A stretch of DNA of 64,000 nt from Escherichia phage vB_EcoM_NBG2: the sequence record NC_054925.1. One strand, written 5' to 3'. This document shows, one piece after another, positions 2,976-62,510 of the stretch. Each line of letters starts with the position of its first letter. The stretch's first letter is position 1. A model generated the notes under the pieces. It ran no database searches. It saw only the letters and a list, made by a program, of their open reading frames with translations, and was not told the DNA's origin. The position numbers and the translations under genes are program-made.

Positions 2976-3049
<74 letters not shown>

Positions 3050-3054
3050 AAATT

Positions 3055-3141
3055 TGGTGCGAGAAGTGGGACTCGAACCCACAAGGAAATCATTCCGCAG
3101 CATTTTAAGTGCTGTGCCTTTACCAATTTGACCATTCTCGC
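3055..3141 (-). tRNA. tRNA-Leu (anticodon UAA), class II long variable arm, CCA encoded
   Basis: Acceptor GCGAGAA/TTCTCGC, anticodon stem CAGCA/TGCTG with loop CTTAAAA, T-arm GTGGG-TTCGAGT-CCCAC. Confidence 0.85.
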
Positions 3142-3142
3142 G

Positions 3143-3215
3143 CTGGGAATAAAGGACTCGAACCTTTGCATCCTGGAATCAAAATCCAGTGCCTTACCAA
3201 CTTGGCTAATTCCCA
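3143..3215 (-). tRNA. tRNA-Gln (anticodon UUG), no encoded CCA; 1 nt from tRNA-Leu
   Basis: Acceptor TGGGAAT/ATTCCCA, anticodon stem CTGGA/TCCAG with loop TTTTGAT, T-arm AAAGG-TTCGAGT-CCTTT. Confidence 0.8.
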
Positions 3216-3312
3216 ATTATTAACAAAGGCTCTTTAGCAAGAACCCTTGATGATAGAGGGTATTAATCAGTGCGGTATGAGTTAATAATAACAAATAATT
3301 CTTAAAGCATAT

Positions 3313-3606
3313 TTACCATTTATGATAATACATATTTACGATGCATTCAAGACCCAAAGGATTCTTGAAAATATCATATTCAAGAGGACCTTTTTCTGTT
3401 TCAATAAAGAAATCAAAATTTACTGTATTAAATTTACGGTCTTCCTTTACTAATTTAACTTGAGAAGATGAACGGTCAATGTAAACCTTTTCAACTTCAA
3501 AACATGTTAAAATGCCATAATCATCAATCAAGGCTTTAGCTGCTTCTTGATCATATTTATATCCATTTTCAATGGATGATACTTTAGCATAAAGAATCAT
3601 TATCAA
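3313..3606 (-). CDS. hypothetical protein, 97 aa
   Basis: Complete ORF, ATGA start/stop overlap with upstream gene (operon-like packing). Confidence 0.5.
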   Translation of the reverse strand: MIMILYAKVSSIENGYKYDQEAAKALIDDYGILTCFEVEKVYIDRSSSQVKLVKEDRKFNTVNFDFFIETEKGPLEYDIFKNPLGLECIVNMYYHKW

Positions 3607-3986
3607 CCTTCATCAACAATAGTATGAGTATGGGCATTTACAATTTGCCACCAATCAAAGCGATTAGAACCATACATCGGTTTGTTTTCATTTTCTTTGA
3701 TAATATCACGAAGTTCATCTTCAGTAGCGGCTTTCGCGATTAAATCAGCATATCCACCACGAGGATAATAATTATCACCTGCAAAAAGTAAAAAGTTTGG
3801 TTTAATGTTATTGAACTCTTCAAGAGTAATAACTGTTCCTGATGGTAGTTGAACAATCTCTACATATTTATATCCTAATTTTTGAGCAGCATCTACTGCT
3901 TCAAGCAAAGTATCATGAGCCCATCCAATTTGACAACCTGGCTTTTCAGATGGATTAGCCTGATAATCCGCATACACTTTGTACAT
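3603..3986 (-). CDS. hypothetical protein, 127 aa (start moved to internal Met)
   Basis: Track ORF 3603..4025 overlaps the upstream gene; ATG at 3986 preceded by AAGGTGA. Confidence 0.5.
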   Translation of the reverse strand: MYKVYADYQANPSEKPGCQIGWAHDTLLEAVDAAQKLGYKYVEIVQLPSGTVITLEEFNNIKPNFLLFAGDNYYPRGGYADLIAKAATEDELRDIIKENENKPMYGSNRFDWWQIVNAHTHTIVDEG

Positions 3987-3987
3987 T

Positions 3988-4173
3988 CTATTCACCTTTA
4001 GAAATTTTATCCATAACGATAGCAATTAAACCAATTAAAAATGCTACTACAAGTGAAAACACATTTTCTGCTGTAGTCAATAATCCGCATATAAATCCAA
4101 CAAACATTGAAAAACTAAAAGCAGAAGCAGAAATTGCAATAGCAACATTTCGAATTAATTCACAACGTTTCAT
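3988..4173 (-). CDS. small predicted membrane protein, 61 aa, two hydrophobic helices
   Basis: GAGGAG RBS; segments AIAISASAFSFSMFVGFICGLL and VFSLVVAFLIGLIAIV; early-type promoter upstream. Confidence 0.5.
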   Translation of the reverse strand: MKRCELIRNVAIAISASAFSFSMFVGFICGLLTTAENVFSLVVAFLIGLIAIVMDKISKGE

Positions 4174-4201
4174 TTTATTCTCCTCGGTAGTTGATAGGGT
4201 A

Positions 4202-4231
4202 ATAGTATCACAACTAAAACCCTATGTAAAC
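4202..4231 (-). promoter_or_regulatory. T4 early-type promoter (GTTTAC-N18-TACTAT) on minus strand; -10 lies between a 7-bp inverted repeat
   Basis: Plus strand gtaaac 4226-4231, atagta 4202-4207; inverted repeat atagggt / accctat. Confidence 0.5.
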
Positions 4232-4249
4232 AACTTTGTGAAATATTTA

Positions 4250-4537
4250 TTACAAAAGATTTTTAGCAATAATCTTGAGATGTGCCGCAGAAATGTGTTT
4301 AGCTTTAAACAACGCAGTTTCTTCAGCAGGAGAGATAACGATTGTAGCACCATCCTTTTTAGCAGACCACCCATCACCTAGGTAAACAGTACCTTTGATT
4401 TCTTCGCCATCAACCAGACTAATCATTGGTTTACCTTCTCGTCCTTTATTTGCTTTAATAACTTCAGAAGTAAGAGTAGCCTCGGTAATGGTAGAAACCG
4501 GGGTAGTTGTAGAAGTAAATTCTTTAAATGTTTTCAT
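4250..4537 (-). CDS. internal protein I-like head protein with CTS-like N-terminus (MKTFKEF...), 95 aa
   Basis: Same size as T4 IPI and located next to 57B as in T4; N-terminus resembles the CTS; body not recognisably IPI. Confidence 0.6.
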   Translation of the reverse strand: MKTFKEFTSTTTPVSTITEATLTSEVIKANKGREGKPMISLVDGEEIKGTVYLGDGWSAKKDGATIVISPAEETALFKAKHISAAHLKIIAKNLL

Positions 4538-4567
4538 TTTATTTTCCTAATTAATTTTGATGAGGTA

Positions 4568-4597
4568 ATAGTATCACTACCTCATCAACGTGTAAAC
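4568..4597 (-). promoter_or_regulatory. T4 early-type promoter (GTTTAC-N18-TACTAT) on minus strand; -10 sits in the loop of an 11-bp inverted repeat
   Basis: Plus strand gtaaac 4592-4597, atagta 4568-4573; inverted repeat ttgatgaggta / tacctcatcaa. Confidence 0.5.
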
Positions 4598-4609
4598 AAC
4601 TTTGTGAAA

Positions 4610-5306
<697 letters not shown>

Positions 5307-5307
<1 letters not shown>

Positions 5308-6032
5308 TATAGTACCTTTAGTGTATTTTTAATTTTAGAAAAAAGTTCTTCAAGAGAACCATCGTTTGTAATTACTAAATCGCCATCACGAATTGGCAAT
5401 CCAGCTTCTGTAATATGTGTATCATTGGATTTTTGACCAGGACGAACTACATGAATTACTGTAGCACCCATCGCCCTAGCCGCATCCATTTCATGATCTT
5501 GACGAGTATCAGGAACGATATAATAATCATAACCTGGGTTAAATTTATCAAGATAATCTAAAGCAAATAATTTTACCCAATACATGCGGTCGAAGTTATT
5601 AACAATCAAATCCGTACCTAGGGCTTGCATCAGACGACGGACTGACCATTGGTCTTCAATATTATTTATAACGTCAATAATCTTGTTAAATGCTACGGAA
5701 TTAACTGATTCTTTTCCTTCGTCATCAAAAACAAACACGCCTTTAATTGGGCTTTTACTATTAAGATAGCAAAATGCTTGTTCCATAATCGTAATTACTT
5801 CTAATTTAGTCAGATTTAAATTAGTCTCACGATCATAGTCAATTCCTTCAAACTCTTTACGAGTTAAGCAAGGATAGTCAGTGTTTGCTGCGAATACGCC
5901 CCATGCATAAGCCAATGCATCTTTAATAGGACCAGCAAGTTGATATTTAACTGCAGAATAATTATTCATGATAAAATCTGCAGTAGTATCTTTTCCACTA
6001 CGCTTTACACCACTCAAAAAGATTAGTTTCAT
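5307..6032 (-). CDS. 1: deoxynucleoside monophosphate kinase, 241 aa
   Basis: P-loop GVKRSGKDT near N-terminus; size and synteny match T4 gp1. Confidence 0.9.
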
Positions 6033-7995: not shown

Positions 7996-8006
7996 TGGAT
8001 TCTCCT

Positions 8007-8014
8007 TATAAATA
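8007..8014 (+). promoter_or_regulatory. T4 late promoter TATAAATA for gene 53
   Basis: Exact octamer 29 nt upstream of the gp53 ATG. Confidence 0.55.
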
Positions 8015-8021
8015 GATAATA

Positions 8022-8029
8022 TATTTATA
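8022..8029 (-). promoter_or_regulatory. T4 late promoter TATAAATA on minus strand for gene 4
   Basis: Plus strand tatttata 27 nt upstream of the minus-strand ATG at 7995. Confidence 0.5.
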
Positions 8030-8042
8030 AACAGGAGGGCCC

Positions 8043-20643: not shown

Positions 20644-22196
20644 GTAACAATACATATCAGCACGTATCAAATGAATCAAAATATGTTAAATTCGATCCTA
20701 CTGGATCGAATTTTCCTGACACTGTCACGACAGTGCAGTCTGCATTATCAAAAATAAGTAATATCGGCGTAAATGGTATTCCTGATGCAACTATGGAAGT
20801 TAAAGGAATAGCAATGATTGCGTCAGAGCAAGAGGTTTTAGATGGAACTAATAATTCTAAAATCGTTACACCAGCTACATTAGCAACAAGATTATTGTAT
20901 CCAAATGCTACTGAAACTAAGTATGGTTTAACGCGCTATTCAACAAATGAAGAAACATTAGAAGGCTCAGATAATAATTCATCAATAACGCCGCAAAAAC
21001 TGAAATACCATACTGACGATGTGTTCCAAAATAGATATTCGTCTGAGTCATCAAACGGGGTTATTAAAATATCATCTACACCTGCAGCTTTAGCTGGAGT
21101 TGATGATACTACGGCGATGACTCCATTAAAAACGCAAAAACTTGCAATAAAATTAATTTCACAAATAGCTCCTTCCGAAGATACTGCATCAGAATCTGTG
21201 AGAGGTGTAGTTCAATTATCTACTGTTGCGCAAACTCGTCAAGGAACTCTCCGCGAAGGATATGCAATTTCTCCGTATACCTTTATGAATTCTGTTGCAA
21301 CACAAGAATATAAGGGTGTTATACGTTTAGGAACACAATCGGAAATTAACAGTAATTTAGGAGATGTTGCAGTAACAGGTGAAACACTAAATGGTCGAGG
21401 AGCTACTGGTTCTATGCGTGGGGTGGTAAAATTAACGACGCAAGCCGGTATTGCCCCTGAAGGTGATAGCTCTGGTGCATTAGCATGGAACGCAGATGTA
21501 ATTAATACTCGTGGTGGACAAACTATTAATGGTTCTTTAAATTTAGACCATCTTACAGCAAACGGAATTTGGTCGCGCGGCGGAATGTGGAAAAATGGCG
21601 ATCAACCTGTTGCCACTGAAAGATATGCGTCAGAAAAGGTTCCAGTTGGAACTATTATGATGTTTGCGGGAGATTCAGCACCTCCGGGTTGGATTATGTG
21701 CCATGGTGGAACAGTGTCAGGAGATCAATATCCTGATTATAGAAACACAGTTGGAACAAGATTTGGTGGTGATTGGAATAATCCTGGTATTCCTGATATG
21801 CGAGGTCTTTTCGTCAGAGGAGCCGGCACGGGCGGTCATATTTTAAATCAACGAGGACAAGATGGTTATGGGAAGGATAGACTTGGTGTAGGATGTGACG
21901 GAATGCATGTTGGTGGCGTTCAGGCACAACAAATGTCATACCATAAACATGTTGGTGCCTGGGGGGAAAATGGAAATAACAGAGGTTATGCACCGTTTGG
22001 CGCATCTAATGGCAGTGGATATTTAGGCAATGGTAGAAGCGCCGACTGGGACAACCATTTGTTCTTTACTAACGACGGATTTGAAATGGGTGGTGCTCGT
22101 GACTCGTTTGGCACGTTAAACCGTGAAGGATTAATTGGTTATGAAACTAGACCATGGAATATATCATTAAACTATATTATTAAAGTTCATTACTAA
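20640..22196 (+). CDS. 12: short tail fiber protein gp12, 518 aa
   Basis: Size, synteny, Gly/Asn-rich receptor-binding C-terminus. Confidence 0.85.
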
Positions 22197-53440: not shown

Positions 53441-53470
53441 TTTGTGTTCCTCATGTTATGTCAGTAAGTT

Positions 53471-53500
53471 TACTATAACACAACACGAGGGACTTGTAAA
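53471..53500 (-). promoter_or_regulatory. T4 early-type promoter (GTTTAC-N18-TATAGT) on minus strand
   Basis: Plus strand gtaaac 53495-53500 and actata 53471-53476. Confidence 0.45.
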
Positions 53501-62017: not shown

Positions 62018-62072
62018 GATGTTTAATTGCGGTACAGGTATATAATATCATATCCTGTACCAAAGTAAACAA

Positions 62073-62405
62073 TTATTTTACTAATTTCCAATGCTTCATG
62101 TCAAGTTTGCCAACTTTTTTCATCTTCTCAATTAAGCGTTCGGCACGCTGGCGAGCTGTAACATAATACCATTCACCCAATTCATTTTGTTCAATTTTTC
62201 CAACGATTACTGTATTCAATTCATAAATCCAACCAGTAAAGAAATTATGAACTTGAATTGTAAAGGTGAAATCTGTTCCCATACCTTCTGTTGTTTCTAC
62301 TTCAACAATATCACCTTCAACTGCCATTAAGAACCACATAGTTTCATCATATTTACCATTGAAGCATTTAGTTTTAACTGCAGCGTTCAGATTAATCGTT
62401 TTCAT
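62073..62405 (-). CDS. hypothetical protein, 110 aa
   Basis: AAGGAG RBS; early-type promoter upstream. Confidence 0.5.
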   Translation of the reverse strand: MKTINLNAAVKTKCFNGKYDETMWFLMAVEGDIVEVETTEGMGTDFTFTIQVHNFFTGWIYELNTVIVGKIEQNELGEWYYVTARQRAERLIEKMKKVGKLDMKHWKLVK

Positions 62406-62432
62406 TTTATTCTCCTTTGTTTGTGTAAGATA

Positions 62433-62462
62433 ATACTATCACAAAGGAACCATACTGTAAAC
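62433..62462 (-). promoter_or_regulatory. T4 early-type promoter (GTTTAC-N18-TAGTAT) on minus strand
   Basis: Plus strand gtaaac 62457-62462 within the recurring tgtaaacaactttgtg cassette. Confidence 0.4.
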
Positions 62463-62483
62463 AACTTTGTGCAATCTTTGGAA

Positions 62484-62510
62484 AATAAAAAAGGACTCCC
62501 GAAGGAGTCC
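62484..62510 (-). terminator. intrinsic terminator (GGACUCC-UUCG-GGAGUCC plus U6) on minus strand
   Basis: 7-bp stem with UUCG loop followed by a run of T on the minus strand. Confidence 0.65.

Follow-up and report, generated by a model that had tools for sequence, protein, structure and literature searches.

Early promoters with a hairpin around the -10 element at the internal-protein locus of a T4-like phage, and a possible role in read-through RNA

At the ipI locus of Escherichia phage vB_EcoM_NBG2 (NC_054925.1) two early promoters carry their -10 element within an inverted repeat. The question is what such a repeat does in a promoter, and in which molecule: as a protein-binding site in the DNA, as a hairpin in the promoter's own message, or elsewhere. 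The window analysed is a stretch of 64,000 nucleotides of this genome, and all positions refer to it. Judged from its sequence, the window belongs to a T4-like phage (Tequatrovirus) with the genes and promoters of the locus on the minus strand. The 3-kb part at 3000-6000 has about 98% identity with Tequatrovirus genomes, e.g. vB_EcoM-G28, and the minus-strand gene order is as in T4: 4, 2, 3, 1, 57A, 57B (Acb1), ipI, trna.4, trna.3, trna.2 and the tRNA cluster. The 57B/Acb1 gene (4610-5065, 151 aa, Pfam Acb1) lies upstream of the ipI promoter, P_ipI. The ipI gene (4250-4537) encodes 95 amino acids (Pfam IPI_T4, E=7e-54) and has its SD AGGA at 4545-4548. The trna.4 homologue (3988-4173) encodes a predicted membrane protein of 61 amino acids and has its SD GAGG at 4182-4185. 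The P_ipI region (4530-4625) has an identity of 100% with phage RB27 and of about 96% with T4, and at least 80% of this query was matched in 640 phage records. No Rfam family was matched in a scan of 3800-4800.

Both promoters read TTTACA-N17-TACTAT with TG two bases ahead of the -10 (P_ipI, 4596-4568; P_trna.4, 4230-4202). They were identified as promoters from sequence, and their layout is that of the T4 early promoter type 'UP/-35/TGn/-10' (Hinton, PMC2988021). An earlier note on this DNA had placed early promoters at 4568-4597 and 4202-4231; the T4-type elements are present there, with the coordinates off by one at most. The upstream block and -35 of P_ipI (ATTTCACAAAGTTGTTTACA, 4591-4610, with the -35 TTTACA at 4591-4596) begin at the 57B/Acb1 stop codon, which lies 13 nt from the -35. 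The extended -10 (GTGATACTAT, 4568-4577, with TACTAT at 4568-4573) forms the 10-nt loop of an 11-bp inverted repeat that is perfect at 11/11 positions, as that note had described. The 5' arm (TTGATGAGGTA, 4578-4588) lies within the promoter spacer and the 3' arm (TACCTCATCAA, 4557-4567) covers approximately -6 to +5. As RNA the stem reaches 14 bp through G·U pairs (4575-4588 with 4557-4570), has the tetraloop AUAC and folds at -18.1 kcal/mol (z = -3.7; 0/200 shuffles equally stable). In the 64-kb window an inverted repeat that is perfect over 11 bp or more and has a loop no longer than 25 nt occurs twice, against 0.47 times in dinucleotide shuffles, and one of the two falls exactly on the P_ipI -10.

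The upstream block and -35 of P_trna.4 (4225-4244, -35 at 4225-4230) are a 20-mer identical to that of P_ipI, and the -10 TACTAT (4202-4207) is inside a 14-nt core, GTGATACTATTACC, common to both promoters (4198-4211 in P_trna.4, 4564-4577 in P_ipI). The 7-bp repeat reported here earlier is present (ATAGGGT, 4219-4225, and ACCCTAT, 4194-4200; 7/7 bp), but what it encloses is the spacer and the -10, not the whole promoter. Extended to 13-nt arms (4213-4225 and 4194-4206) it pairs at 11/13 positions, and the RNA folds at -17.4 kcal/mol (z = -2.6). The stems of both promoters are AT-rich.

Five of the seven early promoters predicted in the window have a hairpin around the -10 (ipI, trna.4, 30.7, 30.8 and alt.-3; z from -2.6 to -5.0), and no such hairpin was found at the e.8 and e.6 promoters when folds were compared with shuffles. 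The 20-mer cassette recurs at the four sites previously claimed (1346, 4225, 4591 and 62456, with 3, 0, 0 and 1 mismatches; 0.04 expected by chance). It equals the -35 plus upstream consensus of one T4 early-promoter subfamily and is also found at about ten T4 promoters. The other promoters described here are likewise on the minus strand. P_30.7 (62031-62069, -35 at 62064-62069, -10 at 62042-62047) has the architecture of P_ipI, with arms GGTACAGG (62054-62061) and CCTGTACC (62031-62038) and a fold z of -5.0. P_alt.-3 (53449-53500, -35 at 53495-53500, -10 at 53472-53477, fold z = -3.8) is a variant that would mask the SD: its arms are 53476-53490 and 53449-53463, and the SD GAGG (53449-53452) is within the 3' arm. 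P_30.8 (62413-62510, -35 at 62456-62461), the fourth cassette copy, has an intrinsic terminator ahead of it at 62487-62510 and a weak repeat that pairs with the SD (TCCTTTGT, 62441-62448, and ACAAAGGA, 62413-62420). P_e.8 (1323-1365, -35 at 1346-1351, -10 at 1323-1328) is the copy with three mismatches and has no significant hairpin (z = -0.1).

A scan of the T4 early regions gave 39 candidates, from which 33 predicted early promoters with a gene downstream were retained. Pairing was scored as the folding energy gained on joining the promoter halves upstream and downstream of the middle of the -10, and the null consisted of 990 chimeras joining the upstream half of one promoter to the downstream half of another. 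The mean pairing energy across the -10 was -9.15 kcal/mol in the real promoters and -4.15 kcal/mol in the chimeras (Mann-Whitney p = 4e-5). The energies are bimodal: 15 of the 33 promoters beat all their own chimeras, and no such hairpin is present in roughly half of T4's early promoters. The view that the repeats are meaningful is borne out in that they are non-random against both shuffles and chimeras. Two classes can be distinguished, with T4 promoters assigned to genes by CDS coordinates (P@65798 to ipII, P@66497 to ipIII, P@65412 to denV, P@136335 to alc and P@166806 to ndd.4). In class A (ipI, ipII, ipIII, trna.4, dmd, mobD.2, motB, 30.7 and e.7) the 3' arm begins directly after the -10 and covers the predicted start site. 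In class B (regB, alc, denV, alt.-3, ndd.4, nrdC.8 and, weakly, 30.8) the 3' arm is the SD, in many cases 20-30 nt downstream.

For comparison with relatives, 36 related loci were retrieved from IMG/VR with the 57B protein as query; a scan of IMG/VR with the exact 16-mer CACAAAGTTGTTTACA gave mostly chance matches in unrelated contigs. Compensatory changes in the arms are found in promoters downstream of 57B, as in GATGAGGTA/TACCTCATC versus GATAGGGTA/TACCCTATC versus GATGGGGTA/TACCCTATC, the last with a G·U pair, and in AGGGCTA/TAGCCCT versus AGGGTTA/TAACCCT. The pair AGGTCTATAG/CTATAGACCT has a counterpart ending in GGCCT (G·U), and the SD and its partner change jointly (TCTCCATTTGG/CCAAATGGAGA versus TCCTCATTTGT/ACAAGTGAGGA). 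The arms themselves are unrelated among promoters (TTGATGAGGTA, ATAGGGT, GGTACAGG, CCTCGTGTT and others). As far as these alleles tell, the relatives conserve complementarity and not arm sequence.

In the stem register of P_ipI, 58% of the cells were paired among the 36 locus-defined promoters against 31-45% with the partner slid. Covariation in this register was 0.206 against 0.173 in shuffles (5/500 as high), and helices scoring at least 16 in 102 non-redundant promoters had 33 G·T and ten A·C mismatches (ratio in the chimera null 0.49, p = 2e-4), both statistics being inflated by the lack of phylogenetic independence among related promoters. The covariation of a single register is only modestly significant, since the family uses more than one register, and the chimera test in T4 is the stronger evidence. 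That G·T outnumbers A·C is a strand asymmetry, and it suggests that the sense strand is the one that folds, most simply as RNA. A G·T wobble fits a hairpin in single-stranded sense DNA equally well.

With canonical sigma-70 spacing from the -10, the predicted +1 is at about 4561 in P_ipI and about 4195 in P_trna.4, in both cases inside the 3' arm, so that the promoter's own mRNA would lack the 5' arm and be unstructured. Folded from the predicted +1, the own transcripts of the two promoters give 0 to -0.3 kcal/mol, compared with -18.4 (P_ipI) and -16.9 kcal/mol (P_trna.4) for read-through RNA; across the promoters examined the values are 0 to -2 and -17 to -23 kcal/mol, respectively. Given these predicted start sites, the hairpin of P_ipI and P_trna.4 can form only in read-through RNA; we infer both the position of the start sites and the occurrence of read-through. 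The earlier note had suggested a 5' UTR hairpin that affects translation or stability. An RNA hairpin was the right kind of idea, but the predicted +1 falls inside the 3' arm and the predicted 5' UTRs, when folded, contain no hairpin. On the minus strand no terminator-like site was found from the late-promoter motifs (8022-8029 and 5663-5670) to P_ipI, and no late-promoter motif was found between 57B and ipI. Any late synthesis of IPI would therefore need to pass through the hairpin, and late transcripts probably do run through it into ipI, the product being packaged into heads.

A comparable geometry is known from the T4 genes e, soc, 49 and I-TevI, where the promoter is described as lying inside the 5' half of an inhibitory hairpin (accessible text of the review PMC3014915). 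With these the present elements share a promoter within the structure, a local mRNA that lacks the 5' strand and is open, and a read-through RNA that folds, the +1 being predicted here. The sister promoters of alt.-3 and of T4 regB, alc, denV, ndd.4 and nrdC.8 also share the pairing of the spacer with the SD. The e, soc, 49 and I-TevI promoters are late promoters (TATAAATA) with temporal control, whereas those described here are early. The SD is outside the stem at P_ipI, where it lies 9 nt past it, and at P_trna.4; it is inside at P_alt.-3 and weakly so at P_30.8.

The reading that we prefer, with a probability of roughly 0.55, is a strong early promoter with a hairpin that insulates against read-through, a biochemical role that we infer, and with promoter blocks that also act as recombination linkers. 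In such an element, a strong early promoter of T4 type with a UP-like block, the -35 GTTTACA, TGn and the -10, the spacer and the stretch from -6 to +5 would have evolved to be complementary. The arms would occupy stretches that RNA polymerase leaves free while the constrained TGn/-10 is looped out, which would explain the position of the -10 in the loop. Initiation inside the 3' arm would leave the leader of the promoter's own mRNA open and unstructured. RNA arriving from upstream (57A/57B into ipI, and ipI into trna.4) would carry both arms and form a stable hairpin a few nucleotides past the upstream stop codon. The hairpin could then be a compact stand-in for an intergenic terminator and insulate the two transcription units from each other: it might attenuate read-through, or it might form a cap at the 3' end of the upstream message once this has been processed. 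Where a sister promoter has the SD as its 3' arm, downstream translation would be silenced on read-through RNA, and such masking of the SD is the obvious reading for the class B promoters.

Translational masking cannot be the role of P_ipI and P_trna.4, because their SD is outside the stem. Neither stem is followed by a U-tract; the tails are A-rich (AAAATTAATT and CAACTACC), which makes classical termination unlikely. For these two promoters a post-transcriptional insulator (a 3' cap or a processing boundary) that leaves the ipI SD accessible is favoured over an efficient terminator. The P_ipI stem is followed by an A/U-rich stretch, AAAAUUAAUUAGG, which we take to resemble RNase E sites.

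A wider and more tentative idea, which we consider possible though well short of probable, is that promoter-embedded hairpins form a genome-wide 'transcript-origin filter' in T-even phages. If this were true, about half of the early genes would depend on RNA from their own promoter for full expression or correct processing, and RNA that comes in from middle or late promoters further upstream would be folded. Such read-through RNA would give no translation of genes whose SD is the 3' arm (regB, alc, denV, alt.-3, ndd.4 and nrdC.8) and would still be translated where the SD is free (ipI, ipII and ipIII). The e/soc paradigm, which concerns a few late genes, would then apply to the early regulon as well, and it would help to explain why early protein synthesis stops after promoter shut-off despite continuing transcription. 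It would also provide a simple rule for separating overlapping transcription units in dense phage genomes, and design rules for compact promoter insulators.

The relation of the hairpins to intrinsic terminators bears on the first alternative. Among the T4 promoters an embedded hairpin was found in 0/8 with an intrinsic GC-rich terminator at most 110 nt upstream and in 15/25 without one (Fisher p = 0.0036). This mutual exclusion makes the two look like alternative answers to RNA arriving from upstream. It would also suit a stem-loop that is itself a true terminator or attenuator of upstream transcription, a composite terminator-promoter as proposed by the authors of the work on promoter-early stem-loop (PeSL) cassettes. 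One RB49 PeSL stem-loop is reported in the accessible text of PMC2839356 to have lowered lacZ expression to an extent similar to that of rrnB T1. In the record of vB_EcoM_ASO78A (MZ726795) the annotation of the P_ipI element gives an early promoter and, overlapping with it, a 'rho-independent terminator' predicted by WebGeSTer and TransTermHP. We nevertheless regard a true terminator as unlikely: the stems at this locus lack a U-tract, a scan of 3900-5200 for terminators gave no terminator-like site, and the stems are rich in AT, whereas the T4 terminators at 62487-62510 and 1491-1514 are GC-rich. Late head-protein synthesis, moreover, would need read-through, as there is no late motif between 57B and ipI. 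With T4 intrinsic terminators the elements share a hairpin right after the upstream stop codon, and they differ in the missing U-tract, the lower GC content and the overlap with a promoter. A simple intrinsic terminator was rejected on the missing U-tract and the empty scan. At the places where hairpins are embedded, a separate element would not fit.

The second part of the preferred reading, recombination linkers, concerns the slot between 57B and trna.4. The ipI gene is bracketed by identical promoter blocks of 20 nt and 14 nt, which are proposed here to serve as homology linkers for swapping internal-protein (IP) gene cassettes. A trna.4 homologue was found in 29 of the 36 relatives, at a distance from 57B of 83 to 1667 nt. 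No true ipI orthologue was found in the slot of those relatives, similarity being confined to the first 28 codons or so (the capsid-targeting leader), and one promoter type recurs ahead of different IP genes. Natural chimeric promoters with a crossover in the shared core occur at L125:3470, L117:3844, L125:3803 and L111:3675, and at L117:4175 the -10 and the 3' arm are duplicated in tandem. The last three of these four chimeras have weakened stems, and their existence indicates that the hairpin is dispensable for viability. The variable ipI slot together with the chimeric promoters agrees with the cassette shuffling proposed for PeSLs.

The same crossovers, which lie in the central core and thus in the loop, could also point to a role in DNA: a cruciform or single-strand hairpin as a signal for recombination or cleavage (e.g. 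by endonuclease VII), or a modulator of promoter melting. The high variability of the IP slot agrees with this, and so do the RB49 PeSL mini-circle junctions that were mapped inside the loop according to the accessible text of PMC2839356. Ordinary homologous recombination in GTGATACTATTACC, the longest conserved block, explains the crossovers equally well. A predominance of G·T over A·C is not expected of a double-stranded cruciform, in which both strands fold, and the location of the 3' arm at the SD in many sister promoters, 20-30 nt downstream, fits a role in mRNA. A DNA-level role is therefore considered improbable.

Still less probable is a neutral by-product, in which chance complementarity or remnants of promoter-cassette recombination have no function. 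[quoted passage not shown] The least credible alternative, in which the repeats are operators bound by a dimeric regulator of early transcription, and which the earlier note had raised in the form of protein-binding operators, has in its favour a dyad with its centre on the -10, as in lac/LexA-type and many other repressor operators, and a shut-off of T4 early promoters whose mechanism is described in the accessible text of PMC3014915 as incompletely understood, but it can hardly be upheld when the arms have no common sequence, complementarity is what relatives keep, mismatches are G·U-biased in a way unlike a double-stranded palindromic site, and only about half of the early promoters have the repeat.

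The repeat is real, non-random and functional-looking, and it is already known in kind and at the ipI locus. As the element, the locus and the likely evolutionary role are in the T4 literature, it carries little weight as a discovery. The new observations are the absence of the hairpin from the promoter's own transcript (as judged from the predicted +1), an RNA-level signature in the form of covariation and a G·U bias, the presence of hairpins in about half of the T4 early promoters and their mutual exclusion with upstream terminators. Together they would clarify the structure as one selected at the RNA level, confined to read-through transcripts and an alternative to an upstream terminator; the terminator function published for PeSLs rested on a single GC-rich example from a different phage group. 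A literature search found no usable start-site or 3'-end maps for T4 (Cappable-seq, dRNA-seq or Term-seq), and the one promoter named in the accessible text of the SegB paper is the tRNA cluster's middle promoter.

PeSL cassettes have been described, in the accessible texts, from the T4-like phages RB49/phi1, PST/T4 and nt-1/KVP40 (Arbiol et al. 2010, PMC2839356; Comeau et al. 2014, PMC4122927), and both a terminator/attenuator role and a recombination role were proposed for them by Arbiol et al. Shared with the present elements are an early promoter fused to a stem-loop, mostly in the stretch that separates the -35 from the -10 or overlapping the -10, an A/T-rich region upstream with a properly spaced -35/-10 (the promoters being predicted here), the upstream gene's stop codon at the 5' edge of the element, many copies among small non-essential ORFs in hyperplastic regions, and conserved blocks as recombination linkers. 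The RB49/phi1 elements differ in a near-consensus TTGACA, compared with the T4-type GTTTAC here, and the stems here are AT-richer and without polyG/polyC or a U-tract. There is also a match with the PeSL-like elements at the two T-even IP loci (Repoila et al. 1994, EMBO J 13:4181), which according to the accessible text of PMC2839356 are T4 early promoters with weaker AT-rich stem-loops, analogues and not homologues of PeSLs. These share the locus, the ipI slot, and the kind of phage with the present elements, as well as early-promoter repeats with AT-rich stem-loops that flank variable IP genes. In PST/T4 the stem-loops are placed just upstream of the promoter in the accessible text of Comeau et al. 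(PMC4122927) and are not embedded in it as here, an arrangement that corresponds to the terminator-plus-promoter class in the present data.

The promoters at 65412, 65798, 66497 and 73938 of T4 (NC_000866) were compared. All three internal-protein genes (ipI, ipII and ipIII) have a class A hairpin, in which the 3' arm lies directly after the -10 and over the start site and the Shine-Dalgarno (SD) sequence is left free, whereas the SD of denV, the next gene downstream, pairs with the promoter spacer. This pattern, in cases that are too few for statistics, would be consistent with translation of the internal-protein genes, and not of denV, on late RNA that reads through from e or 57A. In the early promoter of e.7, the T4 reference sequence has an ambiguous base (N) at ~70340, which falls in the spacer and within the 5' arm region of the hairpin.

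The product of ipI is an inhibitor of a GmrSD-type nuclease. A true ipI orthologue is absent from the interval between 57B and trna.4 in all 36 IMG/VR relatives (L102-L137) that encode a 57B (Acb1) homologue; within this sample, ipI thus counts as a minority occupant of the slot. The genes that replace it resemble ipI only in the N-terminal ~28 residues. In one relative (contig 2706796299_000001), the -10 and the 3' arm of the promoter at L117:4175 are tandemly duplicated, TACTATtacctcatcaagaTACTATtacctcatcaaaatt, which looks like the footprint of slippage or recombination within the element.

A second promoter-like site, TTGACA-N18-TAAAAT, is found on the minus strand of the window at 62069-62104 (-35 start at 62104), 35 nt upstream of P_30.7, an early promoter whose -10 is enclosed by a hairpin. 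RNA initiated at this site would contain the whole P_30.7 hairpin.

The window contains a second perfect 11-bp inverted repeat, the sole other one, at 20688-20713 (AAATTCGATCC tact GGATCGAATTT), within the late structural-gene region. In the interval between genes 4 and 53, the late-promoter motif TATAAATA is present at 8007-8014 on the plus strand and, divergently, at 8022-8029 on the minus strand; together the two motifs make a 9-bp inverted repeat (8006-8030) that has the appearance of a back-to-back late promoter pair.

Two identical GC-rich, terminator-like hairpins of 24 nt, AGCCCCGACCGAAAGGTTGGGGCT followed by TTTT, are located on the minus strand between e.8 and the tRNA cluster, at 1491-1514 and 2048-2071. 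They are spaced by ~560 bp and enclose a small segment, the T4 counterpart of which contains rnaC/rnaD. The pair looks like a duplicated terminator around an inserted or replaced cassette.
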